Program-made: the position numbers and the translations under genes
Notes under the pieces: generated by a model
What the model saw: the letters and a program-made list of their open reading frames with translations, nothing else
What the model was told of the DNA's origin: nothing
The model's database searches: none
DNA from: an uncultured Caenibius sp.
GTDB taxonomy: Bacteria > Pseudomonadota > Alphaproteobacteria > Sphingomonadales > Sphingomonadaceae
Assembly (NCBI GenBank): GCA_964466155.1
Contig: CAYXMY010000001.1
Location: 427 to 64,426, forward strand
Length of the DNA: 64,000 nucleotides
Reading direction: 5' to 3'
Shown: piece by piece, positions 1,024 through 51,422 of the stretch
Numbering within the stretch: the stretch's first letter is position 1
Layout: each line of letters begins with the position of its first letter

Positions 1024-1215
1024 GCCCCCTGCCCTATCGCAAGTGAAGCGCGCTGGCCACAGGTGCCGCATGCTTTGCATGCCACCAGGGCCGTAATATT
1101 TGCCATCGCCGCCTGTTCGATGCATCGCCGGGGGCGAAGGGCGAAGATAAAGCATTCCCCCTCGTGCGGATGCAGCCGCGCCGCCGCCATTGATTGCCAT
1201 AGGAGTTGAACCGCC

Positions 1216-18954: not shown

Positions 18955-18956
18955 CG

Positions 18957-25025: not shown

Positions 25026-25047
25026 ATTCTATCCCGGAGACAATATA

Positions 25048-26238
25048 GTGACAGTGGATTACGATCCCTTTTCGACCGAAGCGATGCGCGACCCGCACCC
25101 GATCTACAAGGATCTGCGTGCGGAAGGTTGCCCGCATTTCGTCGAAGCGCGGCGCGCCTGGGCTCTGACACTGTACGACGATCTCAAGAAAGCGAGCCTG
25201 CGCAACGCCTGGCTCGATTTCTCGGCCGGGCAGACCCCGGCGCAACTGATGCTGGGCGAACCGGTGCCGCACACGTTCATGACGATGAATGTGCCCTACA
25301 ACCGCAAATGGCGCGGGCTGTTGGAACCGTTCTACGGCGCGGGTGCGATCCAGAAGGAAATCCCCCGTCTCAAAGCGGCCATCGCCAGAGAACTGGAGCC
25401 TTTGCGCGGGCAGGATAGCTTCGATGTCTATCACGATTTCGCCAATCAGGTGATGTGCATCAACGCCGGGTACAATCTCGGCCTGCCGCGCGAACAGGCA
25501 ATCGCGGCGCGCAATCTGATCGACCGGATGATTCTCAACCGCGTGCCGGGGCAGGTCGGTTCTTCCACGCCCGACAGCCAGCAGGCGGCGGGCGAGCTGA
25601 TGCACCTGCTGATGGGCCACGTCGCCCATATGCGCGCCGATCCCACGGCGGGCGGCCCGCAGGGCAAAGTGCTGCGCGATGCCGAAGTGGATGGCCAGCG
25701 CCTCTCGGATCAGGACCTGTTGTTCTATCTTTTCAGCCTGCTGGTCGTCGGATCGGAAACCACCCCGATGGCGGTGGCGGGCACGCTGTATTACCTCGCC
25801 CGCCATCCTGAGCAGAAGGCGATGGTGCTGGCCGATCATAGCCGGCTGGCCGATGCTTTTCGCGAAACGCTGCGCTACGATCAGCCGACCAACATGCTCG
25901 CCCGCCGCGCGGCGACCGATTTCGAACTGAACGGGGCGGAGATCAAGGCGGGCGACAATCTGCTGTTCATCTACGCCTCGGCCAATCGCGATGCGAACCG
26001 CTTTGCCAATCCGGACCGCTTCGACATCACCCGTACGAACGAGGGCGATCTCAGCTTCGGCATGGGCGCGCATTTCTGCCTTGGGGCGGCGCTGGCCGTT
26101 GTCGCGGGCGAACTGATGCTGCGCGCGATCTTCGATCTGATCGAGGATTACGAAGTGATCGAGGAGGAATGCGAGCGCGCCTTCGGCGAGCATCTCAACG
26201 GCTTTATCCGGATGACGATCAGGCCGCGCTGGAAGTAG
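25048..26238 (+). CDS. Cytochrome P450
   Basis: Heme-binding loop FGMGAHFCLGAALA, I-helix VVGSETTP, ETLR (EXXR). GTG start. Confidence 0.92.
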   Translation: MTVDYDPFSTEAMRDPHPIYKDLRAEGCPHFVEARRAWALTLYDDLKKASLRNAWLDFSAGQTPAQLMLGEPVPHTFMTMNVPYNRKWRGLLEPFYGAGAIQKEIPRLKAAIARELEPLRGQDSFDVYHDFANQVMCINAGYNLGLPREQAIAARNLIDRMILNRVPGQVGSSTPDSQQAAGELMHLLMGHVAHMRADPTAGGPQGKVLRDAEVDGQRLSDQDLLFYLFSLLVVGSETTPMAVAGTLYYLARHPEQKAMVLADHSRLADAFRETLRYDQPTNMLARRAATDFELNGAEIKAGDNLLFIYASANRDANRFANPDRFDITRTNEGDLSFGMGAHFCLGAALAVVAGELMLRAIFDLIEDYEVIEEECERAFGEHLNGFIRMTIRPRWK

Positions 26239-26839
26239 CGCCGCCCACTTGCTTCAGCCCCGCCACGATGATCTTGGCCATCAGGCGGAAATCGTCGATT
26301 TCGAGATTGTCCGGATCGAAGAACGAGCGCTGCACCATCGGCCCCACGATCAGTTCATGCGCGATCGTGGGCGGTGTCGCAGCAGGCAGTTCCCCCCGGT
26401 CGATCGCGCGCTGGATCATGGCGATGCCCGATGCGCGGCGGCGGTTCACCGTTTCATGCAGGCGTGCGGCCAAGGCTTCGTTGTGCATCGCTTCGCTGAC
26501 GAGCGCGGGCAGCACGCTGGGGAGCGAGGTCGTGCGCAGAAATTCGTAATACTGGGTGATGTAAGCGACGATCTCCCCCTCCAGATCGCCGGTTTCGTGA
26601 ATTTCGATGAGCGGCAGCAGATCGAACGCCGCGATTGCCAATTCCTCCTTGGTCGCCCAGCGGCGATAGATCGTGGCCTTGCTCACTTTCGCGCGGGCGA
26701 CAACCGCATCCACCGTCAATCCCGAGAAGCCGACTTCCCCCAACAGGGTGAGCGTTTCTTCCAGAATTGCCTTTTCACGGCTGGCATCGCGCGGCCTTCC
26801 GGGCGAACGGCGCGGCGCAGGTTTCTTATCTGGTGCCAC
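26219..26839 (-). CDS. TetR/AcrR family transcriptional regulator
   Basis: HTH region (FSGLTVDAVVARAKVSKATIYRRWATKEEL). The start is uncertain: GTG at 26839 gives 206 aa, and the longest ORF runs to 26929. The 3' end overlaps the P450 3' end by 20 nt. Confidence 0.85.
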   Translation of the reverse strand: MAPDKKPAPRRSPGRPRDASREKAILEETLTLLGEVGFSGLTVDAVVARAKVSKATIYRRWATKEELAIAAFDLLPLIEIHETGDLEGEIVAYITQYYEFLRTTSLPSVLPALVSEAMHNEALAARLHETVNRRRASGIAMIQRAIDRGELPAATPPTIAHELIVGPMVQRSFFDPDNLEIDDFRLMAKIIVAGLKQVGGATSSAA

Positions 26840-27113
26840 GTATCGCTTTCCCCCGGTTTCCAAATCGACATTCCGTGTTTTTGCGATAGGCGGGCTATCC
26901 GGCCTGTTCAACCCTGTGAAAGCAAGCATTTGCAGGGATTGTCCGCTCTCGTTTCACTGGGGGGACCGGGGATAAGTTCAGGCATGCGCCCGATGCGGCA
27001 AACAGAACCGAAACCGCCAATAAGCGCTCCACCACCACTGCGAGCAGTTGCATATTGCGCTGCGATGCGGAAGCAGTGCAGGCGATAGAATGGCGGGGCA
27101 TGGAAGGCAGGGC

Positions 27114-32297: not shown

Positions 32298-33008
32298 ATG
32301 GAAAAAGTCATTTACGCCCTTTGGAAAGCCGAAGGCGAAGATCGCGAGACCTTCAATTCCCGTCTCCTGGAACAGCTTCCCGAAGCGCTGAAGAAAACCG
32401 GCGCCACGAAAGTGCGCATCAACCTGCGCGATGCCACGGTCGATCCGGCGGCACCCCTGATCCAGCAATGGCAGCAGCCGATGCAGGATGCCGTGGTGCA
32501 ATTGTGGCTGCCTTCGGCCAATGCCATATTCCGGGGCGATACCGATGCCGCCATCGCCGCCCGGTGCGGCCGTTTCGCCGCCTGGCTGGTCGCGGAATCG
32601 GCCATCATCCCCAACACCCAGCATCCGCCGGTAAAGAAGGGTGAACGGACCTGGGGCTGGTCGCAGGCGAGCTTCATTTCTTTCCGCAAGGATATGCGCT
32701 GGGAAGATTCCATCAAGCATTGGCATAGCCACCACGCGCGTGTGGCCATCGATACTCAGTCGAACTTCGAATATATCCAGAACCTGATCGTCCGTCCGCT
32801 GACGGACAATGCGCCGACTTATGGCGCATTCGTGGAAGAATGCTTCCCGCTGGAAGCCATGACGGATAGCTACGTCTTCTTCGACGCGGTGGGCGATGAG
32901 GATAAATATCAGGCCAATTTCAAGGCAATGATGGATAGCTGCGCCGGTTTCATCGATGCGAGCCAGATCGACATCGTCCCGACCAGCCAGTTCGATTTCG
33001 CAGAGTGA
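32298..33008 (+). CDS. Hypothetical protein, possibly a tandem EthD-like / dimeric alpha-beta-barrel protein
   Basis: 236-aa ORF. The N-terminus (MEKVIYALWKAEGEDRETFNSRLLE) resembles EthD-domain starts. No catalytic motif recognised. Confidence 0.6.
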   Translation: MEKVIYALWKAEGEDRETFNSRLLEQLPEALKKTGATKVRINLRDATVDPAAPLIQQWQQPMQDAVVQLWLPSANAIFRGDTDAAIAARCGRFAAWLVAESAIIPNTQHPPVKKGERTWGWSQASFISFRKDMRWEDSIKHWHSHHARVAIDTQSNFEYIQNLIVRPLTDNAPTYGAFVEECFPLEAMTDSYVFFDAVGDEDKYQANFKAMMDSCAGFIDASQIDIVPTSQFDFAE

Positions 33009-36284: not shown

Positions 36285-38027
36285 ATGAACGACATGTTGA
36301 TCAGGAACGGTACTGTCGTGGACGGCACCGGCGCTCCTGCATTTAAGGCGGATGTCCGTATCCATGACGGCGTCATCGCCGAAGTGGGTGAAGGCCTGGA
36401 AGCCAACGGTGAGCGCATTTTCGACGCCGATGGCTGCTACGTCACTCCCGGCTTCATCGAAAGCCACACGCACTATGACGCCAGCATGTGGTGGCAGCCC
36501 GATCTCGATCCGCTGCCCGGCTATGGCGCCACCACGATGATCCTGGGCAACTGCGGCTTCACCATGGCCCCGCTTCACCCGGATCAGAAGGTCCGCGAAG
36601 AAGTCATGGGCATCTTCTCCTTCTTCGAAGATATCCCGCTCGAACCCTTCAAGGAACATGTGACCTGGGACTGGAACACCTGGTCGGAATATCGCAAATC
36701 CTTTGAAAAGCGGCTGCAGGTTCCGCTGAACTATGCCAGCTTCGTGGGCCACATTCCGCTGCGCCTTGCCGCGATGGGCATGGAAGCGTGGGACCGCGCC
36801 GCCACTCCCGAAGAAATCGCGAAGATGGCCGAATTGCTCGACGATGCGCTGGCCGCCGGTGCGCTCGGCCTGTCGGACAACCTGCACGATCACGATGGCA
36901 ACGACCGCCCGGTTCCCACGCTGCTGGCCGACGATGCGGAATTCACCGCGCTGTTCGATGTCATGGATCGCTATCCGCACACCTGCTATCAGGTGATCGT
37001 CGACACCTTCATGCGCAAGACCGGCCCGCAAAGCCTCAACCGGCTCGAAAAGCTGCTCAAGGGCCGCAATATCCGCGTCCAGATCGCCGGCGCCGTTCCT
37101 TCGCTCGAATTCCAGAAGGACATCCTCCCCGCGATGCAGGCCAGCACGCAGTCGATGCGCGATGCCGGTATCGACGTGTGGCCCGGTTACGCCCATGTCT
37201 CGCCAACCAACGTGCTGGGGATCGTCAAGTCGCTGATCTACGCGCAGTCGAACGATTATGTCTGGCACGAGGTCGTCCTGGCCGAAGACCATGACGAGAA
37301 GCGCCGCCTGCTGGCCGATCCAGAATGGCGCGCCCGCGCCCGCGATAGCTGGGACAACCATGCCTGGCCGCACTCGCCGTTGCAGAACCCGCAAAGCCTG
37401 TACCTGATCGACAGCGAGAACGGCACCGGCCCGATCAACATCACGCTGAAGGAATATGCCGACAGCCGCGAGCTTCACCGCAGCGACGCGATGGCGGAAT
37501 GGCTTCTCGCCAACGGCACCTTCTCCACCGTGCACATGGCCCCCTTCCCGAAGGACGAGCAGCTCACCATCGAACTGATGGAAGACCCGAAAACGGTGGG
37601 CAACATCTCCGACGCTGGCGCCCACTTGCAAATGCTGTGCGGCGGGGGTGAAAACGCCCTGTTGCTGACCCAGTACGTGCGGGAACAACAGGCGCTTTCG
37701 CTCGAACAGGCCATTCATGTGATGACCGGCAAACTCGCCAACCATTTCTTCCTTCAGGATCGCGGGGTCATCGCACCCGGCAAGCGCGCGGATATCTGCG
37801 TGTTCAATCTGGATGAAGTGGAACGCCGCCAGATGATCAAGGCCTGGGACATGCCGGATGGCAAGGGCGGCACGAGCTGGCGCTTCACCCGCGAAGCGAT
37901 GCCGCCGCGCCTGACGCTGGTCAACGGCGTGCCCACTTTCGAAAACGGCGCATACACCGGCAACAAGCCGGGCCGTTTCCTCACCCCTGCAAATGAAAAT
38001 GCCGGCATGGCAATTGCCGCGGAGTAA
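36285..38027 (+). CDS. Metallo-dependent amidohydrolase, N-acyl-D-amino-acid deacylase (D-aminoacylase)-like
   Basis: 580 aa. N-terminal LIRNGTVVDGTG...VTPGFIESHTHYD metal motif and NCGFTMAP. Paralogue of 48076..49827. Confidence 0.88.
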   Translation: MNDMLIRNGTVVDGTGAPAFKADVRIHDGVIAEVGEGLEANGERIFDADGCYVTPGFIESHTHYDASMWWQPDLDPLPGYGATTMILGNCGFTMAPLHPDQKVREEVMGIFSFFEDIPLEPFKEHVTWDWNTWSEYRKSFEKRLQVPLNYASFVGHIPLRLAAMGMEAWDRAATPEEIAKMAELLDDALAAGALGLSDNLHDHDGNDRPVPTLLADDAEFTALFDVMDRYPHTCYQVIVDTFMRKTGPQSLNRLEKLLKGRNIRVQIAGAVPSLEFQKDILPAMQASTQSMRDAGIDVWPGYAHVSPTNVLGIVKSLIYAQSNDYVWHEVVLAEDHDEKRRLLADPEWRARARDSWDNHAWPHSPLQNPQSLYLIDSENGTGPINITLKEYADSRELHRSDAMAEWLLANGTFSTVHMAPFPKDEQLTIELMEDPKTVGNISDAGAHLQMLCGGGENALLLTQYVREQQALSLEQAIHVMTGKLANHFFLQDRGVIAPGKRADICVFNLDEVERRQMIKAWDMPDGKGGTSWRFTREAMPPRLTLVNGVPTFENGAYTGNKPGRFLTPANENAGMAIAAE

Positions 38028-38918
38028 ATGACAATGGCAACTGAAGCACAAGTTGGTGAAGGCGAACGCGCCTATTTCAACGGTCGGATTCGCAAGATCG
38101 AAACGGACAGTTCGGTTCTGATCAGTTCGTCCAAATACCTCAACAACGCTGAACTGCGGGGGTTGATCGCGCAGGAAATGCTCCGCCGCAACGGGGCCGA
38201 CCTGCCGAACACCGCCTATATCCCCGAAGTGGTGCAGATCCTTCAGAATCTGGAAGACATGCCCCGCATCATGCAGCTGTTCGAGGAAGAAAAGGCCCGT
38301 CTGCCGCGCTTCCGCGAATGGCTCGAAGAGCGCAACCTCGCGAACTTCACGATCGAGCAGGTGAAGGATTGCAAGCCCGGCACGCTGGGCGCCATGCTTC
38401 ACACCTTCATGGTCGAAAGCGGATACGAACTGGATATCTTCTATCGTGAGGTTCAGGTGGTGAACGATTTCACCTTCTACCTGCGGCAAACCGCGCTGAC
38501 GCACGATATCGAGCACATGATTTCAGGCTTCGGCCCGAACCATGGCGGTGAAGTCGCGCTGCTCAACGCCAATCTCCACGCACGCGTGCGCTACTTCCAT
38601 CCGGAACTGGCCGCGTTCTTCAATCGCGTGCAGATCTATCTCAAGGCGAAGACGATCATGAAGGACGGGCTTCACTACCCCGAAGCCATGGCGCTGAACC
38701 TCGAAGCGGAATTCCTCGGCGCGGAACAGGGCCGCAACTGGAAATACCCGCTGATGATCGTCGACTGGCGCAAGTATGCCGACTGGCAGGTCGAAGACAT
38801 CCGCCGGGAACTCGGCATTACGCCCGTCCTGCCGGATGGCGTATGGGATGATACCAACCGCCTCTGCGACGAAGGCGATCCGAGCTATACCGAACAGAAC
38901 CTGATGGCGGCCGAATAA
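38028..38918 (+). CDS. Coq4-family protein (function unknown in this context)
   Basis: THDIEHMISGFGPNHGGE matches the Coq4 HDxxH-x11-E motif. Starts 1 nt after the amidohydrolase stop. Paralogue of 47225..48076. Confidence 0.75.
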   Translation: MTMATEAQVGEGERAYFNGRIRKIETDSSVLISSSKYLNNAELRGLIAQEMLRRNGADLPNTAYIPEVVQILQNLEDMPRIMQLFEEEKARLPRFREWLEERNLANFTIEQVKDCKPGTLGAMLHTFMVESGYELDIFYREVQVVNDFTFYLRQTALTHDIEHMISGFGPNHGGEVALLNANLHARVRYFHPELAAFFNRVQIYLKAKTIMKDGLHYPEAMALNLEAEFLGAEQGRNWKYPLMIVDWRKYADWQVEDIRRELGITPVLPDGVWDDTNRLCDEGDPSYTEQNLMAAE

Positions 38919-39137: not shown

Positions 39138-39605
39138 ATGACACAGACTTTCAACTTCGACACGACCGACGAAGCCATCGTGGACTTGCTGCGCCAGAAC
39201 GGGCGCGCCACCAATCAGCAGATTGCCGAAACGTTGGGGCTGACGGCCACAACCGTATCTTCACGCATCAAGCGCATGGAAGATGCGAACCAGTTGCGCG
39301 TGGTCGCCGTGTCGGATTTTTCCGCCCACGGTTTCAATTTCCTGATGGAAGTCGCGGTGGAGGTGGATGGCCGCCCGGCATCCGAAGTGGGGAAGGAACT
39401 GGCCGCTTTCCCCGAAGTGTTCGCGGTGCATCTCGTCACCGGCCGTTACGATCTCGATATGCTGGTCGCGCTCCGCGATTTTGACGACCTTTCGCATCTC
39501 CTGCTCGACAAGTTTTCCAAGATTCGCGGTATCCGTTCGATGGCCCCGGCCATCGTGGTCGATATCATCAAGTACCAGTTCGATATCGCCCCGATCGAGG
39601 AATGA
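39138..39605 (+). CDS. Lrp/AsnC family transcriptional regulator
   Basis: 155 aa. HTH (IVDLLRQNGRATNQQIAETLGLTATTVSSRIKRM) plus a RAM/ACT-like C-terminus. Confidence 0.9.
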   Translation: MTQTFNFDTTDEAIVDLLRQNGRATNQQIAETLGLTATTVSSRIKRMEDANQLRVVAVSDFSAHGFNFLMEVAVEVDGRPASEVGKELAAFPEVFAVHLVTGRYDLDMLVALRDFDDLSHLLLDKFSKIRGIRSMAPAIVVDIIKYQFDIAPIEE

Positions 39606-40105
39606 ACCGGGCCATGAACGGATACCAGCTTGACGATCTGGACCGCCAGTTGATTACCCAGCTCAGCCGCGATGCGCGGGTTTCCAACCGCAAGATCGCG
39701 GCCGAACTGGGGGTCACCGAAGGCACCGTGCGCGGCCGGATTAAACGGCTGCAACAGGATGGGCTGATCACGTTCACCGCTGTGACCGGCCTACAGTTGG
39801 AAGCGAAATCGCGGCTGGCCTTCATCACCGTCCAGGCCAATGCCAACGATGTGCGCGGCATTGCGCGGAAGATTTCGGAAATGCCGATGATCAACGGCGT
39901 GATGATCACCATGGGCCAGTTCAATATTCTGGCCATTTGCCTGTTCGACGATCTGGACCGGCTGGTGGATATCGCTTCGGACAAGATCCTGGCGCTACCC
40001 GGCGTGCATCACGTCGAAACGTCGATTGCGGTAAAAACCTTCAAATACAACACGCGCGTCGCCCGCATTACCGAGGACAAACCCGCGCACGACCGGGCAG
40101 CCTGA
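39602..40105 (+). CDS. Lrp/AsnC family transcriptional regulator
   Basis: 167 aa. HTH (LITQLSRDARVSNRKIAAELGVTEGTVRGRIKRL). ATGA overlap with the preceding Lrp gene. Confidence 0.9.
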   Translation: MNRAMNGYQLDDLDRQLITQLSRDARVSNRKIAAELGVTEGTVRGRIKRLQQDGLITFTAVTGLQLEAKSRLAFITVQANANDVRGIARKISEMPMINGVMITMGQFNILAICLFDDLDRLVDIASDKILALPGVHHVETSIAVKTFKYNTRVARITEDKPAHDRAA

Positions 40106-42186: not shown

Positions 42187-43275
42187 TCAGGCAGCCACCT
42201 TCTCGTGCACGCCGGGTGGCGATTTCATCGTGGTGTGCATCCCATCCACCCGCTTGTGGAATTCCGGCGCCCGTTCGCGCGGGTTGTAGAACTGCTTGTA
42301 CCAGATGCGTTCCTTGTGGAACGGGCCGTCATCGGGGATCTGCAGGATGTTGATCGCAGGTTCCTTGTACTTCCACAGTTCGAAATCCTGCGCGAAGGCG
42401 GCCAGCCCCGCTTCGTGATAAGCGCGGGCAATCGCCGCTTCCTCACGCGTCGGCTCGTGATTTTCGGCCGTCTGCGCCATCACCGCGAACCACACGCGCA
42501 CTTCGCCATCTTCCACCGGCGTGTTGCAGATCATCATCAGCGAAGGGTGTTTGCCTTCCATGCGCGACAGCAGGATGCCCGGCCCGGTGTACCAGGTGTC
42601 GGTTTCCAGCAATGCATCGCCATCCACCAGCGTGCGATGGCCCGAACCGAAGCGCTGGCGCATGATGTGCCCAGCGAATTCGTTCTCGAAATAGGCATGG
42701 CCCAGGCTGCCGTGCACGGGCGTGAAATGCGCAAAATCGGTCATGTTATCGACGATTTCCTGCGGGTGGATGGGCAGCGTTCCCAGATGATCCACCTGCC
42801 AGCGGACCCAGCCCTGTTCGGTCCGGTCGTATTCGGCGAACGCGGGCAGATCGAAATCGGGGGCGCCGCCTTCCATGTCATGCCACATCCAGATGCAGCC
42901 CGCCCGTTCGACCACCTTGTGCGATTTGACGCAGGCCGCCTTGGGAATGCCGTGGGTGGAATAAGGGATATCGTCGCACTGCCCCTCAGGCGTGAAGCGC
43001 CAGCCGTGCGCCGGGCAGCGGATCGAATCCCCTTCGATCCGCGTTCCATCCTTCACCACGTAAGAGGTGGTGTTGCGCGCGATGTTGACTTTCATGTGCG
43101 GGCAATAGGCATCGAGCAGCACCACCCGCCCGCTCTTGCCGCGATAGAGCGCCATTTCCTTGCCGAAGAAGCGCACCGGTTGCGGCTCCTGCGTCACTTC
43201 ATCGGCAATCGCGATCATGAACCACCCACGGGGAAATGCCAGTTCGCCCAGGCCATATTCAGCAGTCGTCGCCAT
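42187..43275 (-). CDS. Rieske [2Fe-2S] non-heme-iron oxygenase, KshA-like (3-ketosteroid 9-alpha-hydroxylase oxygenase-type)
   Basis: CPH...CPAH Rieske ligands, mononuclear iron motif DNMTDFAHFTPVH. 362 aa, close to KshA size. Confidence 0.85.
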   Translation of the reverse strand: MATTAEYGLGELAFPRGWFMIAIADEVTQEPQPVRFFGKEMALYRGKSGRVVLLDAYCPHMKVNIARNTTSYVVKDGTRIEGDSIRCPAHGWRFTPEGQCDDIPYSTHGIPKAACVKSHKVVERAGCIWMWHDMEGGAPDFDLPAFAEYDRTEQGWVRWQVDHLGTLPIHPQEIVDNMTDFAHFTPVHGSLGHAYFENEFAGHIMRQRFGSGHRTLVDGDALLETDTWYTGPGILLSRMEGKHPSLMMICNTPVEDGEVRVWFAVMAQTAENHEPTREEAAIARAYHEAGLAAFAQDFELWKYKEPAINILQIPDDGPFHKERIWYKQFYNPRERAPEFHKRVDGMHTTMKSPPGVHEKVAA

Positions 43276-43298: not shown

Positions 43299-44492
43299 TC
43301 AGATGAAACTGTCGGTGTTGGGGCCGCCCAGCATCACACCGCCGACATTGCGGCCCACGGTGCTGGGATTGTTGGCCACATGCGTGCGCCCGGCATGGAT
43401 ATCGCAGAACGCCCGCGCGATCGGATTGCCGCGATAGATCGCTTCCGCGCCGCTCAGGAAGAACAGGCGGCTGATCAGCGCGCAGCAGCGGCTGGAAATC
43501 TGCGCCGACTGGAAGCGGAAGCGCAGCCGGGTTTCAAGATCGGCGGATTCGCCCGCCCGCGCATGTTCGTTCAGCACACCGAAATTGCGGAACAGGATGG
43601 TCTTCATCTCGTCAATCGCCGACTGGGTTTCAGCGATCAGCATCTGCACATCGGGATCGCCGGTGGCGCTGGCGAAGCTGTTGTTGCTCTTGCGCCGCGC
43701 ACCCGTTTCCAGAAACACGTCGAGCGCCCCCTGCAACGCCCCGATGGACGAAGACGACACGGCGCGCACGAACACCTGGCCGAATGGCAGCTTGTAAAGC
43801 GGCGCGGGATTGGCCTTGGCCCCTGGGCTCGTCAGCGCGAAACCGTCCTTCGAACGGTGCGTGCGATAAGCGGGGACCAACGCATCGGACACCGTCACAT
43901 CCTGGCTGCCCGTGCCGCCAAGACCGATGGTGTTCCAGATCGACAGGACCTGGAAATCCGCCCGCGGGACGAGGAAGGTCAGGAAATCGGGCTGGCCGGT
44001 TTCCGGATCGGGCACCAGCCCGCCCAGAAACGCCCATTCGCAGTGATCGACGCCGCTGGAAAAGCCCCAGCGCCCGCTGATCCGGTATCCGCCTTCGACC
44101 GGGGTCACTTCCGCGCGCGGCATGTAAGAGGAGGAGATCAGCGTCGTCGGGTCTTCGCCCCAGACATCTTCCTGCGCTTGTGGATCGAACAGCGCCAGTT
44201 GCCAGTTATGGACGGCCACCACGCCGAGCACCCATGCCGAAGACATGCAGCCTTCGGCAAGCTTCATCTGGACTTCGTAGAAAACCTCCGGGTCCATTTC
44301 GTAGCCGCCGTAACGCTTGGGCTGGAGGATTTTGAAGAAATCGGCCGCCTGGAAATCGGCGATGGTCGCATCCGGCACCTTGTTTTCCGCTTCGCACTGA
44401 TCGGCGCGGGCGCGCAAGGTGGGGACCAGCGCGGCGGCGCGGGCAACCAGATCGGCCGGGCTGGGCATGTCAATCTTCGGGGCAAGGCTCAT
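43299..44492 (-). CDS. Two-component flavin-dependent monooxygenase, oxygenase subunit (ACAD fold, HsaA-like)
   Basis: 397 aa. N-terminal LVARAAALVPTLRARADQCEAENKVP and C-terminal ARAFCDIHAGRTHVANNP are typical of the HsaA / group D hydroxylase family. Confidence 0.8.
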   Translation of the reverse strand: MSLAPKIDMPSPADLVARAAALVPTLRARADQCEAENKVPDATIADFQAADFFKILQPKRYGGYEMDPEVFYEVQMKLAEGCMSSAWVLGVVAVHNWQLALFDPQAQEDVWGEDPTTLISSSYMPRAEVTPVEGGYRISGRWGFSSGVDHCEWAFLGGLVPDPETGQPDFLTFLVPRADFQVLSIWNTIGLGGTGSQDVTVSDALVPAYRTHRSKDGFALTSPGAKANPAPLYKLPFGQVFVRAVSSSSIGALQGALDVFLETGARRKSNNSFASATGDPDVQMLIAETQSAIDEMKTILFRNFGVLNEHARAGESADLETRLRFRFQSAQISSRCCALISRLFFLSGAEAIYRGNPIARAFCDIHAGRTHVANNPSTVGRNVGGVMLGGPNTDSFI

Positions 44493-44510: not shown

Positions 44511-45434
44511 TCAGGCCGCGCTGGCCATGGGCTGTTGTTGTTCATCGGCGCCGAAGCCGATGCTGAAATCGTGGCCCCACAGGCTGACCGAAGTGCTTTC
44601 GAACACGGTGTGGCGATCCCAATCGACAGTCCGCCCGCCGAACCCGTATTCCAGCGCGAAACCGCCCGGCGTCGCCATGTAGAAACTGGTCATGCGGTCG
44701 TTGGTGTGCTTGCCCAGCGTCGCCATCATCCGGGTGCCGGCGGCGCGGACGCGGTCCATTGCATGGCCGACTTCGTCCATCGTCGGCACTTCGACCATCA
44801 GATGGACACATCCCGCGGGCACTTCCCCTTGGAACAGGGCAAGCGAATGGTGCCGCGCGTTGCTGCAATGCATGAATTCGATGCGCTGCTCCGGCCCTTC
44901 CACGCCTTGCGGGCGATGGATCATGAAATCGGCCATGCCGAAGCCCAGCACATCGATCATAAAGGCGCGCGTTTCTGCGAAGTTCGGCGCGGGCAGCACG
45001 ACATGGCCATAGCCCATGTCCCCGGTCACGAAACGGGGCACGCCCGCAGGCGACACGAAGCGATCAAAATGCGAGGTATAGCCCAGCACCAGTTCGTGGC
45101 GGTTGCCCGAAGGATCGAGGAACCACACCATATCGACCACGTGGCGCAGGGCGCGCTCTTCAGCCGTCGCAGAGTGGCACACCACGCCTTTCCGCTTCAG
45201 TTCGGCCAGCGCGGCGGCAAATTGCGCTTCGGTCCGGATTTCCCAGCCGCTGGCGAAGTAACGGTCCTGCCCATCCTGCCGGATGAACAGCCGCCCCGCC
45301 CGCTCGTCCATGCGGAGCGAGAGACCGCCGGGCGCAGAGTGCGCGGAAAAGCCGGCCACATCCTCGCCGAAGCGTTCCCACGCGGTGGGATCGGCGGCGT
45401 TGATGACGCTGTAAGCCAGTGCCGCAATTTCCAT
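44511..45434 (-). CDS. Type I extradiol ring-cleavage dioxygenase (HsaC/BphC-like)
   Basis: 307 aa, two-domain VOC. Contains GYGHVVL, RHHSLAL and HLMVEV motifs. Confidence 0.85.
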   Translation of the reverse strand: MEIAALAYSVINAADPTAWERFGEDVAGFSAHSAPGGLSLRMDERAGRLFIRQDGQDRYFASGWEIRTEAQFAAALAELKRKGVVCHSATAEERALRHVVDMVWFLDPSGNRHELVLGYTSHFDRFVSPAGVPRFVTGDMGYGHVVLPAPNFAETRAFMIDVLGFGMADFMIHRPQGVEGPEQRIEFMHCSNARHHSLALFQGEVPAGCVHLMVEVPTMDEVGHAMDRVRAAGTRMMATLGKHTNDRMTSFYMATPGGFALEYGFGGRTVDWDRHTVFESTSVSLWGHDFSIGFGADEQQQPMASAA

Positions 45435-45537
45435 GACGCAACCTTCCTTGCGAAACCATGGAAGGCATCATGACCTGCGAGCGGCAGCGTGAAATTGACT
45501 TATATCAAACTGCTCCGGGGATCGAGCAACGAATACG

Positions 45538-45603
45538 CCATATTGCATCAATAAAAATCTGGATATTGCGTATAATGTCAGCATTATTTCTACGCAAATA
45601 TCC
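45538..45603. promoter_or_regulatory. AT-rich control region with an imperfect inverted repeat (candidate operator)
   Basis: ggatattgcgta (45561-45572) and tacgcaaatatcc (45591-45603) form an inverted repeat with a 1-nt indel. A related half-site, ccatattgcat, is at 45538. The region lies upstream of the extradiol dioxygenase / HsaA-like / KshA-like operon. Confidence 0.4.
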
Positions 45604-45623
45604 TTCCTTGGCGCTAACCAGCG

Positions 45624-46979
45624 CTACAAGGCGGCCGCAAATCCACGCAGGAAGATCGTAGCCGCGCGCCGTGCCGCGTCAGCCATTTCGACGGGGCCGA
45701 GCGCCCTGCCCGCCGCGATTACCCGGGTTCCCTTGAAAGCCAACACCAGCGCCTGACGCGCATACCATGGCCGGTCGTGCACTCGCACTTTGCCCGCATC
45801 CTCCAGGCTGTCGAGCCATGCCGTCAGCGGGGCGAGCCACGGATTGCGCAGGATTGCATAGACATCGCGCGCCAGTTCGGAATCGCGCCGCATTTCGGCG
45901 ATGACCGTGCGATGCAACAGGATCGAATCGGCGCTGCCAAGCACCTGCAGGCTCGCCTGAAGGAATTGCGCCAGGGCTTCCTCCGCCGCGTCCCCCGTTG
46001 GCAGCGGCGGTGGCACGGCATCGGCCAACCGGTAAGCCATTGCCCGCATAGCCGCACCGAAAAGCCCCGCCTTGTTGCCGAAATGGCGATAGAGCGTGCC
46101 GCGCCCGACGGCAGCCTCCGCCCCGATCAGATCGAGACTGGCGCCCTGATAGCCGTTTTCGAGAAAATGCGTGGCCGCCACGCCGAGCAGCTTCGCGATA
46201 TGCGCGGGCGGCTCGTCTCCGGCAGGCGGGGCGGCGGGCACGGGAAAACACTCCCCCCCTCTATCGTCCATGGCAAGGATGCCATGCCCAAACAGTTTCG
46301 CCACCCGCCGCGCGGCAACATCGCGCTGCGCCGGGGGCGGGCTGGGAAAGCCCATCAGCAAAGCCGGGCTTTCAGACGACAGCGATCCGAACAGAGTCGC
46401 AAAATCGAGCGGTACATGGGCGCTCTCGCCATGCGCTTCGGCGATCTTCTGCAGCAGAGCGCGGATCGGCTCCAGCCTGTCCGACTGCGCATCGTGCATG
46501 CTTTCCGCGAAATCGGGCATCAGCCGCGCGATGCTGATCGTAACCCATGCCGCACTGAGGAAACCGCCATCGACCGCCGCATCGAGAATGGCGCGGGAAA
46601 AGAACGCCAGCCCATCGTCCGCCGCGCGGGCGTCCACCGGCTGCGCATTCACCCGTGCGGTGAATTCAGTGCCCAGTTCTTCGGCAGCGGCGCGGAACAG
46701 CGCCTCCTTGTCCGGGAAATAGCGATAGATCGTTTCCTTGCTGACGCCTGATGCACGCGCAATCGCATCGATGCTCACCGCATCGAAACCGCCCGCGACA
46801 AATTCGGCCCGGGCCACGGCAAGCAAATGGCGCACGCGGGCCGATTGCTGCGGGGGCCGTGTGGCGCGGGATTCGGGATCTTCCAAAGCGATGGTCGCCT
46901 CCATCACACGGGCTATAGCAGACCCGCACCCGGTTGCGACCCGCCCGCACCGCTCCATCAACAGCCTATCCATAGCCAA
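45624..46979 (-). CDS. Tandem (duplicated) TetR-family regulator with two HTH-plus-ligand modules in one chain
   Basis: Two TetR_N-type HTH segments: FDAVSIDAIARASGVSKETIYRYFPDKEALF near residue 65 and YQGASLDLIGAEAAVGRGTLYRHFGNKAGLF near residue 285. An alternative start is the ATG at 46904. Confidence 0.8.
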   Translation of the reverse strand: MAMDRLLMERCGRVATGCGSAIARVMEATIALEDPESRATRPPQQSARVRHLLAVARAEFVAGGFDAVSIDAIARASGVSKETIYRYFPDKEALFRAAAEELGTEFTARVNAQPVDARAADDGLAFFSRAILDAAVDGGFLSAAWVTISIARLMPDFAESMHDAQSDRLEPIRALLQKIAEAHGESAHVPLDFATLFGSLSSESPALLMGFPSPPPAQRDVAARRVAKLFGHGILAMDDRGGECFPVPAAPPAGDEPPAHIAKLLGVAATHFLENGYQGASLDLIGAEAAVGRGTLYRHFGNKAGLFGAAMRAMAYRLADAVPPPLPTGDAAEEALAQFLQASLQVLGSADSILLHRTVIAEMRRDSELARDVYAILRNPWLAPLTAWLDSLEDAGKVRVHDRPWYARQALVLAFKGTRVIAAGRALGPVEMADAARRAATIFLRGFAAAL

Positions 46980-47003
46980 GCGCGCCGCAGATGTCTTGAC
47001 AAA

Positions 47004-47030
47004 AATCGAACGGTTTGATACCGTTCGATT
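47004..47030. promoter_or_regulatory. Perfect 10-bp inverted repeat (candidate TetR operator) overlapping a TTGACA box
   Basis: aatcgaacgg-tttgata-ccgttcgatt. TTGACA at 46996-47001. Lies between the divergent tandem-TetR gene and the Coq4-like gene. Confidence 0.5.
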
Positions 47031-47224
47031 GCAAGGCCGATGAAGTCAGACGGCAAATGGGCGCGATAGCCAGACCGAACCCCGATATCGCAGGTGGGAA
47101 ACGGTGGCGTTATCGCATATCCTTGCCGCACGGCTGACCGCATCGTTCGACCGGCGCCCCGCGCACAGGCTTTCGGGCCAAGCCGGGCAGCGCCGCGATT
47201 GCGCAAGTTTCGGGAGAGTATTCA

Positions 47225-48076
47225 ATGGCCGATGATATACCTTATCTGTTTCGCGGCGTGATGCCGGTGGAAACGCCCAGCAGCGTGCTGGTGTCGTCTT
47301 CCAAGTATCTCAACAATCCGCGTCTGCGCGAATGGCTGGCGATGATCCTCCTGCGCCGGAACGGGCCGGACATGCCCCCGCCCGCGGAAATGTACGAGTT
47401 CATGAGCATTCTCGACGAACTGCGCGATTATGACCGGATCGAGCAGATGATCGCGGACGAGCGCAAGGTGAACCCAGAATTCGACGCGTGGTTCGCTGAA
47501 GGATTCCATTCCACTTACGCCATCGAAGATTTCAGGCAGTACGATCCCGGCTCGCTCGGCGGTATTTTCTACACCTGGATCACCGAAGGCGATTACGAAA
47601 TCCAGATCACCCCGTGGCAGGAGCCCAAGACCCAGCTTGAATTCTACAATCTGCGCGCCGGGCAAACGCACGATTTCGAGCACATCCTGACTGGCGGCGG
47701 CTTCAATTTCATGGGCGAACTGGTGCCCTACTGGTATCGTCTGACCAACATTTTCAAACACATCAAGGACCCGGAACTGGCGGCCGAACTGTGCACGATC
47801 TACATTTTCGGATCGCTGCGCTACACCGTGCGTACCATCCTCCACTACCCTCAGGTATGGATGACAGCGGTCAAATGTATCGAACAGGGGATGAAAGTGG
47901 GCCAGGCCAGCGATGCCCTGTTCATGAAGAAGCTCGAACCGGCTTTCCACCTGCCGCTGGAAGAAGCGCGGGCGGCACTCGGCGTGCGCGAAGCGGTCTT
48001 CCTCGACACGCATGACGAAGGCATGTTCTGGGCGACGGACGGTAAGCAACAACTTCTACGGGAGGCAGCCGAATAA
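47225..48076 (+). CDS. Coq4-family protein (function unknown in this context)
   Basis: THDFEHILTGGGFNFMGE matches HDxxH-x11-E. Shares SSVL(V/I)SSSKYLNN and LRRNG blocks with 38028..38918. Confidence 0.75.
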   Translation: MADDIPYLFRGVMPVETPSSVLVSSSKYLNNPRLREWLAMILLRRNGPDMPPPAEMYEFMSILDELRDYDRIEQMIADERKVNPEFDAWFAEGFHSTYAIEDFRQYDPGSLGGIFYTWITEGDYEIQITPWQEPKTQLEFYNLRAGQTHDFEHILTGGGFNFMGELVPYWYRLTNIFKHIKDPELAAELCTIYIFGSLRYTVRTILHYPQVWMTAVKCIEQGMKVGQASDALFMKKLEPAFHLPLEEARAALGVREAVFLDTHDEGMFWATDGKQQLLREAAE

Positions 48077-49827
48077 TGACACGGTGCGATATTCTGATCC
48101 GCGGCGGCACGATCGTCGATGGCAGCGGCAATGAACCCTTCGTCGGCGATCTCGCCATCACGGGCGACACCATCGCCTGGATGGGCGCCGCCTATCAGGG
48201 CGAAGCGAATGAAGTGATCGATGCCGCGGGCCTGACCGTCACCCCCGGCTTTGTCGACATCCACACCCACTACGATGGGCAGGCGGCATGGTCGGACGAA
48301 TTGTCCCCCTCCTCCTCCCATGGGGTGACGACAGTCGTCACCGGCAATTGCGGTGTCGGCTTTGCCCCCTGCCGCACCGAAGACCATGACCGGCTGATCC
48401 GGGTGATGGAAGGCGTGGAAGACATTCCCGGCGTCGTCATGGCCGAAGGGCTGGACTGGGCCTGGGAAACTTTCCCCGAATACCTCGATGCCCTGGCCGC
48501 CCGCCCGCGCGATATCGATGTGGCGGCGCTGCTGCCGCACAGCCCCTTGCGCGTCTATGCCATGGGCGAACGCGGGGCCAACCGCGAACCGGCAACGCCG
48601 GACGATATGGACCGGATGTACGATCTGGCGCGTGAAGCGCTGGATGCGGGCGCTATCGGCTTCGCCACTTCGCGCCTGCTGCTTCACCGCACCAAGGCTG
48701 GGGAGAACATCCCCAGCTTCGCCGCGGACGATGCCGAACTCAAAGCCATTACGGCGGCCATGCGCGATACGGGCAAAGGCGTGCTGCAGATGGTGCTCGA
48801 TTCCCCGTTCCAGAGCTGGAGCGACGAACTGGCCCACCTGATCGCGATCGCCGAAAGCTGCGGCCGCCCGGCGACATTCACGCTCGGCACCTCGAACCAT
48901 GGGGAGCCGGTGTTCCGCGATGCCCTGCGCATCGTGGAAGAAGCCAACGCGCGCGGCCTGTCCATCACGCCGCAGATCCTCCCGCGCCCAGTGGGGATGA
49001 TCGGCGGATTCGATCTGTCGACGCATCCGTTCTGCCTGTGCCCCAGCTACATCGCGATTGCCCGGCTGCCGCTGGACGAACAGCTTCCCCATCTGCGCGA
49101 TCCGGAGTTCCGCGCCCGGTTGATTGCCGAACAACCGCAGGAAAACCATTCGCTGGCGATGATGACGCGCAACTGGGACTGGATCTTCCCGTTTGCGGGC
49201 GAGCCCAATTACGAACCCCCGGTAGAAACCAGCGTGGGCGCGCAAGCTCGCGCGCAAGGCCGGACACCGGAAGAGGTGGCCTACGATCTGCTGATGAACG
49301 GCGGCGACGGGCGCGGCATGCTCTACAACGCGCTGGGCAATTACTATCAGGGCAAGTTCGACGCGCTGTACGAACTGATGACGCATCCCGATACGGTGAT
49401 GGGCCTGGGCGATGGCGGCGCGCATTATGCCGCGATCTGCGATGCCAGCTATCCCACCTTCCTGTTGACCTACTGGGTCCGAGATCGGGATGGTCCGCGC
49501 CTCACGCTGCCGCAGGCGGTCCGCGCCTTGACCGCGCGCCCGGCCGAGACAGTCGGCCTTGAAGATCGCGGGCTTCTGGCGCCCGGCTACAAGGCGGATG
49601 TCAACGTGATCGATCCGGCGGGCATGAAACTGCATCTGCCGATGATCCGCCGCGATCTGCCCACCGGTGAGCGCAGGCTCGACCAGGCAGCCACCGGCTA
49701 TGTCGCCACGATCTGTTCCGGCACGGTCATTCGCCGGGGCGACCAGCCGACCGGCGCACGACCGGGCCGTGTGGTCCGTGGCAATCAGGCCGCACCGCAA
49801 GATAACACCGCACTGGAACCGGCCTGA
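48076..49827 (+). CDS. Metallo-dependent amidohydrolase, D-aminoacylase-like
   Basis: 583 aa. LIRGGTIVDGSG...VTPGFVDIHTHYD and GNCGVGFAP motifs. TAATG overlap with the Coq4-like gene. Confidence 0.88.
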   Translation: MTRCDILIRGGTIVDGSGNEPFVGDLAITGDTIAWMGAAYQGEANEVIDAAGLTVTPGFVDIHTHYDGQAAWSDELSPSSSHGVTTVVTGNCGVGFAPCRTEDHDRLIRVMEGVEDIPGVVMAEGLDWAWETFPEYLDALAARPRDIDVAALLPHSPLRVYAMGERGANREPATPDDMDRMYDLAREALDAGAIGFATSRLLLHRTKAGENIPSFAADDAELKAITAAMRDTGKGVLQMVLDSPFQSWSDELAHLIAIAESCGRPATFTLGTSNHGEPVFRDALRIVEEANARGLSITPQILPRPVGMIGGFDLSTHPFCLCPSYIAIARLPLDEQLPHLRDPEFRARLIAEQPQENHSLAMMTRNWDWIFPFAGEPNYEPPVETSVGAQARAQGRTPEEVAYDLLMNGGDGRGMLYNALGNYYQGKFDALYELMTHPDTVMGLGDGGAHYAAICDASYPTFLLTYWVRDRDGPRLTLPQAVRALTARPAETVGLEDRGLLAPGYKADVNVIDPAGMKLHLPMIRRDLPTGERRLDQAATGYVATICSGTVIRRGDQPTGARPGRVVRGNQAAPQDNTALEPA

Positions 49828-49836
49828 GCCTGAAAT

Positions 49837-49877
49837 CCCTTGCGGGGCGGTTTCGCACCGTTCCGCAAGGGTTTTCG
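49837..49877 (+). terminator. Rho-independent terminator
   Basis: cccttgcgg (49837-49845) pairs with ccgcaaggg (49863-49871), followed by ttttcg. Confidence 0.6.
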
Positions 49878-49887
49878 CATGCGGCGA

Positions 49888-50406
49888 TCAGGCCGGTTCG
49901 GGAACGCCCACCGGTACTTCACCGAACGCCACGTATTTCGGGCTGCCATCCTCGCCCACCACTTCGGTGAACATGGATGTCACATAGCTGCGCGTTGCGG
50001 CGATGTGCCAGCGGCCATCCTGCTTGCGATAGATATCCTCGTATTCCACGCCCAGCCGCGTGACCGACCGCGTGGCGAGCAGGATCGTCCGGAAATTGAG
50101 CGACCACTTGCCGGTGGCCGTATCCGGGCCGGTCAGCGCGATTTCGCCGTTGGTGGCATGGTGGATGTCATACACGCCTTCCTGGCAGGCCATCTCCTGA
50201 TAGACCTTGAGAAATGCCTCGCGATCCGTGAAAACGGGGAAATTCTGATATTCGATACGGATCGGACCGGGGAGGAACGTGTCGCGCAGTTCATCCACTT
50301 GCTTGAGATCGCAGCACCGCAGATAGCGGGCCTTGAGTTGGCGGATCGCATCGATATCCTCAAGCGCGGTCAGGCGGACGGCAAGGTCTTCAAGAGTGGC
50401 GGGCAT
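49888..50406 (-). CDS. SnoaL-like / NTF2-fold protein
   Basis: Trimmed to MPATLEDLAVRLTALEDIDAIRQLKARYLRCCD, an N-terminus typical of SnoaL_4/NTF2-like proteins. 172 aa. Confidence 0.75.
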   Translation of the reverse strand: MPATLEDLAVRLTALEDIDAIRQLKARYLRCCDLKQVDELRDTFLPGPIRIEYQNFPVFTDREAFLKVYQEMACQEGVYDIHHATNGEIALTGPDTATGKWSLNFRTILLATRSVTRLGVEYEDIYRKQDGRWHIAATRSYVTSMFTEVVGEDGSPKYVAFGEVPVGVPEPA

Positions 50407-50540
50407 CGTCTTCTCCCATTCGCCGGAATATTCCGGAACAACTGATTTGCACATGAATATCGCGCAATCTTCTACGCATATAAAAGTTCATACTGCATGA
50501 TATTTACCAAATGCGCCACAACCGGGAAACAGGAAACGCG

Positions 50541-51422
50541 ATGAGCCAGTATAACACGATCCGCTACGAAACCGATGACGGCTTGCTGCGGCTGACACTC
50601 AACCGCCCGGACAATCTCAACGCCTTCACGGTCGAAATGGCCGACGAACTGGAAGACGCCTATCGCCGGGCCAATGGCGACGATGCCGTGCGGGCGATTG
50701 TCGTCACCGGGGAAGGCAAGGCGTTCTGCGCGGGGATGGACCTGTCCACCGGCGGCAATGTCTTCGGGCTCGACGAAAGCCAGTCCCCCACGCTGGCGGA
50801 CTTGCAGGAACGGCCGGTGCGAGAGGCGATTGAACGCGGCGTGCGCGATACCGGCGGGCGCGTGGCGCTGGCGATGTACGATTGCCTCAAGCCCATCGTC
50901 GGCGCGATCAACGGCGCGGCGGTGGGCATCGGCGCCACGATGACACTGCCGATGGATTTCCGCCTTGCCTCCGACCGGGCGCGGATCGGCTTCGTCTTCG
51001 GTCGGCTGGGGATCACACCGGAAGCCTGCTCCACCTGGTTCCTGCCGCGCATCGTCGGCATGCAGCAGGCGCTCGAATGGCTGTACAAGGCCGATATCTT
51101 CGATGCTGCCGAAGCGCTGGACAAGGGGCTGGTCCGCTCCGTCCACGCGCCGGACGATCTGGTCGATGCAGCATGCGCGTTCGCCCGCTCGCTGGTGGCC
51201 GACCGCTCGCCTGTCAGCATCGGCTTGATCCGCCAGATGATGATGCACAACCCCGCCCAGCCCCACCCGCGCGCCGCGCATGACGTGGAATCGCTGGCGA
51301 TGTTCTATTCCAGCATCGGCGATGGGAAGGAAGGCGTGCAGGCCTTTCTGGAAAAGCGCGCACCCGCGTTTTCCGGCAAGGCGTCCGCCATGCCGCCATT
51401 CTATCCCTGGCACGAAGACTGA
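50541..51422 (+). CDS. Enoyl-CoA hydratase/isomerase family protein
   Basis: Trimmed to MSQYNTIRYE.... VVTGEGKAFCAGMDL and NGAAVGIGATMTLPMD motifs. Confidence 0.88.
   Translation: MSQYNTIRYETDDGLLRLTLNRPDNLNAFTVEMADELEDAYRRANGDDAVRAIVVTGEGKAFCAGMDLSTGGNVFGLDESQSPTLADLQERPVREAIERGVRDTGGRVALAMYDCLKPIVGAINGAAVGIGATMTLPMDFRLASDRARIGFVFGRLGITPEACSTWFLPRIVGMQQALEWLYKADIFDAAEALDKGLVRSVHAPDDLVDAACAFARSLVADRSPVSIGLIRQMMMHNPAQPHPRAAHDVESLAMFYSSIGDGKEGVQAFLEKRAPAFSGKASAMPPFYPWHED

Follow-up and report, generated by a model that had tools for sequence, protein, structure and literature searches.

The 64,000-nucleotide stretch of DNA analyzed here (the window), from an uncultured Caenibius sp., carries at 47225..49827 a gene pair encoding a Coq4-like protein and an amidohydrolase, which we refer to as module 2 (type 2, or copy 2), and at 36285..38918 a paralogous pair, module 1 (type 1, or copy 1). 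In module 2, the Coq4-like open reading frame (ORF), which includes THDFEHILTGGGFNFMGE in the ORF list, comes first and overlaps the start of the amidohydrolase gene by 1 nt (TAATG), as a preliminary description of this DNA had stated and as both the ORF list and the junction sequence (GGGAGGcagccgaaTAATGaca) confirmed. Indeed, the amidohydrolase gene begins at the A of the upstream TAA stop (GAATAATGACA), the stop and start codons having one base in common, and a Shine-Dalgarno sequence (GGGAGG) is located 8 nt before this start, within the Coq4-like gene. The gene order of module 1 is inverted relative to module 2, with the junction GGAG-TAA-ATG. Judging from these sequences, both junctions appear built for translational coupling. 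No obvious N-terminal signal sequence was seen in the four module proteins upon inspection by eye.

Both modules are situated in a steroid/estrogen catabolic island, in which a tandem TetR gene, divergent from module 2, heads the string hsaC-hsaA-kshA. This context, which gives the pair its meaning, had been missed by the preliminary description. The coordinates of all features are given in Table 1.

Table 1. Genes and other features of the window (positions are those of the whole stretch).
Feature	Coordinates	Strand	Comment
Coq4-like protein, type 2 (copy 2)	47225..48076	+	283 aa; ends in -AAE
Amidohydrolase, type 2 (copy 2)	48076..49827	+	583 aa; start overlaps Coq4-like stop
Tandem (double-domain) TetR regulator	45624..46979	-	451 aa as longest ORF; start codon uncertain
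Perfect 11-5-11 inverted repeat, predicted TetR operator	47004..47030	.	core conserved in ~28 orthologous loci
Putative promoter toward the Coq4-like gene	46996..47024	+	TTGACA 46996..47001, 17-nt spacer, TACCGT 47019..47024
Unusually long leader, operator to Coq4-like start	47031..47224	+	relatives carry a TauD/TfdA-family gene here
Amidohydrolase, type 1	36285..38027	+	580 aa; paralogue of 48076..49827; ends in -AAE
Coq4-like protein, type 1	38028..38918	+	296 aa; directly after amidohydrolase stop; ends in -AAE
Two overlapping Lrp/AsnC regulator genes	39138..39605 and 39602..40105	+	downstream of module 1
HsaC/TesB-like extradiol dioxygenase	44511..45434	-	HsaC 260 bits
HsaA/TesA2/OecB-like flavin monooxygenase	43299..44492	-	HsaA 395 bits
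KshA-like Rieske oxygenase (KshA_C domain)	42187..43275	-	steroid ring A/B gene
SnoaL_4/NTF2-like gene	49888..50454	-	convergent on amidohydrolase; recurrent module neighbor in many loci
EthD-domain gene	32298..33008		corresponds by position to C. tardaugens EGO55_13495
EdcR-like TetR	26219..26929	-	
EdcA-like P450	25048..26238	+	
EdcB-like extradiol dioxygenase	15830..18040	-	C-terminal part of ORF
EdcC-like indolepyruvate:ferredoxin oxidoreductase	11971..15426	-	

The tandem TetR regulator and its putative operator

Module 2 had been described as divergent from a tandem TetR gene across a perfect inverted repeat, and we found both the repeat (AATCGAACGGT-ttgat-ACCGTTCGATT) and two TetR_N domains in the TetR ORF (residues 52-98 and ~263-313 by Pfam; NCBIfam models match at residues ~40-100 and ~263-313). 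The two halves of this protein are 32% identical over the DNA-binding region, and orthologues of 416-448 aa are encoded in many loci. The region 46990..47040 contains a phylogenetically conserved palindrome, the core of which is CGAACGGT-N5-ACCGTTCG (47007..47027). In ~28 loci, this core was present (≤3 mismatches) upstream of the Coq4-like gene or of a preceding TauD-family gene, and it was kept even where the tandem TetR is only ~31% identical to that of the window. It always lies 5-6 nt after a cTTGaC hexamer and usually 25-60 nt ahead of the first gene. No further copy of the core was found in the 64-kb window at ≤3 mismatches. The count in the window is by itself not significant, as 43 of 100 shuffles gave at least one match at this threshold; it is the recurrence of the same placement in ~28 loci that makes the palindrome significant. 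On this comparative evidence, the palindrome is almost certainly the operator of the tandem TetR.

The -10-like element of the putative promoter toward the Coq4-like gene lies inside the right operator arm, where it is invariant (TAnnnT), and the distance between the TTG hexamer and the operator is constant across loci. The predicted repressor site overlaps the spacer and the -10 element of this putative promoter. Furthermore, the intergenic regions are only 47-200 bp long in most loci, and the same site must therefore also cover the TetR gene's own promoter.

In Caenibius tardaugens, Croceicoccus estronivorus and Sphingobium, a TauD/TfdA-family gene is located between the operator and the Coq4-like gene, and among 79 loci, 15 have such a gene at the head of the operon. 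It is missing from the window and from the 98% relative L007, where the 197-nt leader remains. No remnant of a TauD pseudogene was found in this leader, and no riboswitch or other RNA either, the window giving no Rfam match at the gathering threshold. The TauD-family protein of the relatives is a generic TauD/TfdA member (PF02668, E=2e-40) that fails the equivalog test for taurine dioxygenase (77 bits against a cutoff of 313).

Among known regulators, Mce3R of Mycobacterium tuberculosis (PDB 9B7Y) likewise carries two TetR DNA-binding domains on one chain and controls cholesterol-linked genes (PMC11667970). However, the similarity between the actinobacterial and the alphaproteobacterial protein is weak (37 bits), and Mce3R binds a non-palindromic site (PMC11667970), whereas the conserved site here is a perfect palindrome.

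Linkage and co-inheritance of the two modules

We scanned GTDB, one genome per species (185,579), with the Coq4-like alignment and obtained 351 relatives. The best 80 loci were all module-2 Coq4-like orthologues with 58-81% identity, mostly from Sphingomonadales, together with a few Rhodospirillales, Acidocella and Caulobacteraceae metagenome-assembled genomes (MAGs). Sequence downstream of the Coq4-like gene was long enough in 74 species-level loci, and in 45 of these the next gene was the type-2 amidohydrolase gene, invariably in that order. Adjacent same-strand pairs in all fetched loci comprised 48 pairs of type 2 (coq2-ami2) and nine of type 1 (coq1-ami1) but no cross-pairs, and the linkage was retained despite the opposite gene order in the two modules. 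The pairwise distances of the partners correlated strongly (Mantel r 0.88 for type 2, n=48, and 0.92 for type 1, n=9; p ≤ 5e-4), and their neighbor-joining trees had 32 of 54 bipartitions in common, compared to at most two in 200 label shuffles. These sequence comparisons support the view that the two genes form a genuine module, of which an old duplicate exists, and that they are co-inherited with partner specificity in more than 45 species. They also match what co-duplication of an ancestral pair predicts. Such co-duplication had been suggested previously, with tree congruence as its test, and agrees with the congruent trees obtained and the absence of cross-pairs, but in its strict form it is unproven without outgroup context, because vertical co-inheritance alone also gives congruence within each type.

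A tblastn search of the window with both module-2 proteins returned exactly one paralogue for each. The Coq4-like paralogues are just 37% identical over 209 aa and the amidohydrolase paralogues 28% over 592 aa, which bears out the earlier claim that the duplication is old; averaged over the orthologue sets, the between-type identity is 30% and 27%, respectively. The blocks SSVL(V/I)SSSKYLNN, LRRNG and VTPGF(V/I)(D/E)(I/S)HTHYD that had been reported as common to the paralogues were also found. The two amidohydrolase types match each other over their full length with 188 bits, as opposed to 122 bits in two fragments for the best solved D-aminoacylase, and both have the same unusual features (see below).

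The neighborhood of ami1-coq1 is conserved in Novosphingobium, Caenibius, Croceicoccus, Sphingobium and metagenomes. The window, C. tardaugens, N. aromaticivorans, ES2-1, THN1, PP1Y and several metagenome contigs have the amidohydrolase gene ahead of the Coq4-like gene, with both genes on one strand. Module 1 of Sphingobium is rearranged (TonB receptor, Coq4-like, convergent amidohydrolase, VOC), with the pair still adjacent. Copy 1 does adjoin two Lrp/AsnC genes, as described before, and from this arrangement it had been proposed that different signals control the two modules. This idea is plausible for the present genome, but the regulators are exchanged from one genome to the next: in two loci (L009, L011), this Lrp pair adjoins module 2, in two others (L092, L093), the Lrp genes are far from module 1, and module 1 often has no nearby Lrp gene. 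The wiring is evolutionarily fluid, and the proposal is therefore only suggestive. On one MAG contig (L086, 10001..16880), both modules occur in tandem within 7 kb in the order Coq4-like 2, amidohydrolase 2, amidohydrolase 1 and Coq4-like 1, each retaining its own internal gene order.

The partners can also occur apart. In the N. aromaticivorans/subterraneum group, the Coq4-like and tandem TetR genes are still together, while the amidohydrolase gene is found beside hsaC elsewhere on pNL2. Three Sphingobium loci have TetR and divergent TauD-Coq4-like genes and have lost the amidohydrolase. In loci at ~60% identity (Chakrabartia and others), a gene of the AtuA family abuts the Coq4-like gene in the amidohydrolase's place, and a third Coq4-like paralogue on pNL2, 47% identical to type 2, is located directly after AtuA. 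The AtuA family (PF07287) is a second recurrent partner (L081, 9959..12580; L067, 9989..12578; L001, 6129..8775), its gene and the Coq4-like gene being convergent in Chakrabartia-type loci; on pNL2, the two are read in the same direction, 4 nt apart.

A C-terminal -AAE was present in all 34 type-1 Coq4-like proteins, in all 16 type-1 amidohydrolases and in 20 of 85 type-2 Coq4-like proteins (in the window at 38916..38918, 38025..38027 and 48071..48073; also in loci L091-L123, L001 and L089), that is, the same end on two unrelated folds encoded by neighboring genes. We know of no recognition system that accounts for it.

Folds and metal sites of the two proteins

The Coq4-like proteins score close to the cutoff of the Pfam Coq4 family (PF05019; 22.9 bits), which copy 1 passes with 32.2 bits and copy 2 narrowly misses with 22.6 bits, while canonical Coq4 domains reach 127-170 bits. 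A phmmer comparison with 3MSQ gave E=3e-4. An AlphaFold2 (AF2) model (pLDDT 78.9, pTM 0.78), for which type-1 and type-2 sequences were aligned together, matched only 3MSQ and 6E12 at E<1e-4 in Foldseek (probability 1.0, TM 0.73-0.75), and the protein is accordingly predicted to adopt the all-helical Coq4 fold. The motif HDxxH-x11-E (H149, D150, H153, E165) was invariant in 125 stand-alone sequences from three paralogue groups. The Zn-dependent C1-decarboxylase activity of COQ4 requires this motif (PMC7615680), which adjoins a hydrophobic tunnel (PMC10680789). The same fold and motif are found in the cyanobacterial Coq4-like proteins Alr8543 (6E12/3KB4) and Npun (3MSQ), the former of which is bound to oleic acid and Mg in 6E12, and a hydrophobic tunnel beside the metal site is likewise expected in the proteins studied here.

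Compared with COQ4, Alr8543 and Npun, however, the identity is only 16-18%, the Pfam score is around or below the cutoff, and there are ~65-95 extra N-terminal residues. This extension contains the most conserved part of the subfamily, the Ser-rich motif TxSSxLxSSSxYLN..LRxNGxDxP, which is located at residues 17-51 (47273..47377) and at 38103..38207 in the window, lies outside the Pfam Coq4 model and has low confidence in the AF2 model. The subfamily is also narrowly distributed: of 1.8 billion representatives, those matching at E ≤ 1e-30 amounted to 69 clusters. Tandem Coq4-Coq4 fusions of 515-544 aa (P0361-P0364) are its lead representatives; one half retains HDxxH-x11-E, and both halves keep the N-terminal motif, including the half without the Zn motif. 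This pseudo-heterodimer architecture suggests that the Coq4-like proteins act as (pseudo)dimers.

The amidohydrolases belong to Amidohydro_3 (Pfam; E=5e-54 for copy 2, E=1e-26 for copy 1), and by sequence profile they are closest to the D-aminoacylases/OngB (198 bits). The AF2 model (pLDDT 84.5) was best matched in Foldseek by 1RJQ, 1M7J, 9G5M and 3GIP (E ~1e-30 to 1e-32, TM 0.74-0.78), and predicts a D-aminoacylase-like fold with a (beta/alpha)8 barrel and a beta-sandwich domain. Invariant residues are the HxH pair H63/H65, Cys92, Asp446 and His450, of which D446 aligns with Asp366 of AfDam, the catalytic Asp after beta8. The N-terminal beta-domain, the HxH, the Cys after beta2 and the Asp after beta8 are therefore conserved relative to the D-aminoacylases/OngB (subtype V; 1M7J, 3GIP, 9G5M, 9KB1), from which the proteins differ by ~100 additional residues and by their invariable steroid-cluster context with a Coq4-like partner.

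The D-aminoacylase group is defined by a beta-site zinc bound by Cys/His/His (AfDam Cys96, His220 and His250) and by the catalytic Asp (PMC12017989). Among 67 family members, no invariant or near-invariant His was found at residues 205-316; the predicted beta5 (236-240) and beta6 (266-269) are followed by L/D and L/G, respectively, with His at neither, and a local HMMER alignment placed Ala opposite AfDam His220. As the central barrel could not be aligned to D-aminoacylases by sequence profile, this argument draws on family-wide invariance and predicted strand positions rather than on superposition. The Cys/His/His site thus appears to be absent, and the names 'D-aminoacylase' and 'N-acyl-D-amino-acid deacylase' should not be taken as the function of these proteins, which also scored far below every cutoff of the NCBIfam equivalog models.

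We also considered identity with the Sphingobium sp. Chol11 'amidase' Nov2c229 or with C. tardaugens EGO55_16305; the amidohydrolases described here are probably not Nov2c229. The comparison was made via the S. herbicidovorans counterpart on pMSHV (B6S01_RS18715), a gene of ~397 aa next to SclA/CoA ligase and short-chain dehydrogenase/reductase (SDR) genes that appears to encode an amidohydrolase of the ~400-aa type, in contrast to the 580-aa type described here. Nov2c227 (Bsa) of Chol11 is a secreted amidase-signature enzyme and differs from our amidohydrolase as well. The bile-salt side-chain cluster of Chol11 also has two contiguous Lrp/AsnC regulators, and its hydrolase genes, with roles that are at most partly known, are conserved in sphingomonad steroid clusters; a Coq4-like partner goes unmentioned in papers on the bile-salt 'amidases' of Chol11 and C. 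tardaugens.

The steroid island and a possible role for the modules

Downstream of the TetR gene and on the same strand, the steroid ring-A/B genes hsaC (after a gap of 189 nt), hsaA and kshA complete a co-directional string of which tetR is the first gene. Further upstream in the window there are genes for a KstD-like flavoprotein, SDRs, an EthD-like protein, an AraC regulator, a P450, a small TetR, an indolepyruvate-ferredoxin-oxidoreductase-like protein and TonB-dependent receptors. The closest named relatives are C. estronivorus MH-B5 (KshA 91%, amidohydrolase 83%) and C. tardaugens NBRC 16725 (type-1 Coq4-like 87%), and the locus of the latter (L124) has the gene order of the window from the KstD-like gene through the module-2 amidohydrolase. 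In C. tardaugens, the edc estrogen cluster begins at EGO55_13520 (PMC6895838, PMC7793797), kstD is EGO55_13510, kshA is EGO55_13445 and the tesA2/oecB homologue is EGO55_13440 (PMC6895838, PMC7793797, PMC12882949), and the last two genes are induced 7-8-fold by testosterone and estradiol (PMC6895838, PMC7793797). Since these published tags fit the L124 map, the modules lie directly beside the characterized edc cluster and flank the induced ring-A/B genes. By tag counting, module 1 of C. tardaugens would correspond approximately to EGO55_13470/13465 and module 2 to EGO55_13420/13415.

The stretch 11971..26929 of the window resembles the edc estrogen-degradation cluster (compared with PMC7793797). 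The EthD-domain gene is a bile-salt-related gene within this estrogen/androgen island, as its counterpart EGO55_13495 is a 64% homologue of the 7beta-hydroxysteroid dehydratase Hsh3 (PMC12882949). For the ORFs at 15830..18040 (-) and 211..1716 (-), Pfam domains were found only in the C-terminal part (residues 431-697 and 251-479), and translation of both probably begins well downstream of the starts listed for them. At least three more genes named 'D-aminoacylase' occur elsewhere in C. tardaugens (EGO55_03095, EGO55_05865 and EGO55_06235; PMC12882949, PMC6895838), the first ~2.3-fold up on cholate and the last ~8-fold lower on testosterone than on pyruvate (PMC12882949, PMC6895838), which points to an expansion of the family in this steroid degrader. 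The 'taurine dioxygenase' gene EGO55_04770, induced by cholate, is distinct from the TauD-family gene and lies in another context. Neither the Coq4-like genes nor the D-aminoacylase-like genes of the two modules are mentioned in the searchable literature on C. tardaugens, Chol11 and related strains.

Given this architecture, the co-evolution of the partners, and the conservation of operator, fold and motif, we infer a chemistry and an inducer as follows. Module 2 may be a two-gene operon that forms a repressor-controlled, translationally coupled accessory module of the steroid (estrogen/androgen/bile-salt) island, in which two metalloenzymes serve one hydrophobic steroid-derived substrate; in our estimate, the chances that this holds and that it fails are about balanced. 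The single-chain double TetR would bind the palindrome through both HTH domains and repress the two divergent units, i.e. its own gene (possibly together with hsaC-hsaA-kshA) and the Coq4-like/amidohydrolase operon, until released by a steroid-derived ligand. The two cytoplasmic enzymes would then act consecutively, or as a complex: the amidohydrolase might open or hydrolyze a C-N or C-O bond, exposing a carboxylate, and the Coq4-like protein might, in the manner of eukaryotic COQ4, use its hydrophobic tunnel and Zn site to decarboxylate or otherwise process the product. Module 1, as the anciently diverged paralogue, could do an analogous job on a different substrate.

Several observations weigh against this proposal. 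About 29 of the 74 loci have no amidohydrolase gene beside the Coq4-like gene, the neighbor often being AtuA or the gene standing alone with TetR, so the Coq4-like protein is able to function in the absence of this amidohydrolase. Among the best 150 family representatives, the long proteins are Coq4-Coq4 and none is a fusion of Coq4 with an amidohydrolase, so that a physical complex has no direct support from gene fusion. In the window, 197 nt separate the operator from the start codon, which sets it apart from most loci. A sigma-70 consensus scan of 45400..50600 returned no promoter, and the one proposed here was drawn only from cross-species conservation. Lastly, we know of no intermediate of the 9,10-seco or 4,5-seco pathways that would obviously need an amidohydrolase plus a decarboxylase.

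COQ4 was long regarded as an adaptor or scaffold in the coenzyme Q (CoQ) synthome. The Coq4-like protein could similarly be a non-catalytic lipid- or steroid-binding adaptor that hands a hydrophobic substrate to various partner enzymes, an idea we take seriously while thinking it doubtful. It would accommodate one subfamily having two unrelated partner families, the amidohydrolases and AtuA, as well as the fact that the most conserved segment is Ser-rich and predicted to be disordered, as interaction motifs typically are, and persists in the fusion half that has no Zn motif. The fatty acid held in the tunnel of the cyanobacterial homologue 6E12 and the invariant C-terminal -AAE common to coq1 and ami1 would fit as well. 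However, an invariant Zn motif in 125 of 125 stand-alone members is hard to explain for a pure carrier, and COQ4 itself is catalytic (PMC7615680). An unlikely alternative places the chemistry in the amidohydrolase, which would deconjugate N-acyl steroid conjugates inside the cell (taurine, glycine or other amino-acid bile-acid amidates), with the TauD-family oxygenase of the relatives handling the released or still attached amine. Even though the nearest characterized relatives hydrolyze N-acyl-D-amino acids, their Cys/His/His site is not conserved here, and even though a TauD/TfdA-family gene comes first in some operons, its product falls short of the taurine dioxygenase cutoff and the window has no such gene. 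Sphingomonads do grow on conjugated bile salts, but in Chol11 the secreted Bsa performs the deconjugation (bioRxiv 10.1101/2021.05.19.444901). Moreover, the Coq4-like partner would be left unexplained.

The database names 'ubiquinone biosynthesis protein Coq4' and 'N-acyl-D-amino-acid deacylase family protein' would suggest that these are simply ordinary ubiquinone Coq4 orthologues and ordinary D-aminoacylases, adjacent by chance or hitch-hiking, which we find barely credible. While COQ4 belongs to the quinone pathway, each genome has two to three paralogues of the genes described here, which are located on chromids or plasmids and inside catabolic islands with hydrolases or AtuA, downstream of a promoter under predicted repressor control. 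The restriction to 351 stretches in the species genomes scanned and to few sequence clusters, the marginal Pfam scores, the extra N-terminal domain, the partner-specific co-evolution and the lack of conservation of the D-aminoacylase metal triad are equally difficult to reconcile with it. The catabolic context, the TetR and the paralogues thus argue against a role in ubiquinone biosynthesis, as far as gene content can tell, and the prenylated benzoate substrate of COQ4 is not expected for these proteins.

The superfamily of each component is known, and control by a TetR and its operator is ordinary. What is new is that a divergent Coq4 subfamily is repeatedly paired, in a partner-specific manner, with an atypical protein of D-aminoacylase fold, or with AtuA, in steroid islands, and that there are two ancient paralogous modules that the searchable literature on the model organisms carrying them does not mention, even though this conserved pair is present twice inside the best-studied model cluster (C. 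tardaugens, beside edc and kshA/tesA2). Extending our proposal of a two-metalloenzyme module, we tentatively suggest, with rather more doubt than confidence, that the Coq4-like protein and the atypical amidohydrolase (or AtuA) represent a new two-component metalloenzyme class responsible for an as-yet-unassigned cleavage or decarboxylation in sphingomonad steroid catabolism. Candidate steps are the removal of the Delta4,6 bile-salt side chain, or a step after estrogen/androgen ring cleavage. The routes by which sphingomonads degrade estrogens, androgens and bile salts have recognized gaps: to our knowledge, side-chain removal in the Delta4,6 variant has no known aldolase or thiolase, and roles have yet to be assigned to several genes of the estrogen 4,5-seco pathway. 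COQ4 itself was reportedly identified as a Zn-dependent decarboxylase only in 2023-24. The operator-repressor pair is a candidate steroid biosensor, like EdcR of the same organism. If true, our proposal would provide the first catabolic and the first bacterial function for the Coq4 fold, and a bacterial Coq4 subfamily acting in steroid catabolism would widen the chemistry of this fold and offer tractable soluble homologues.

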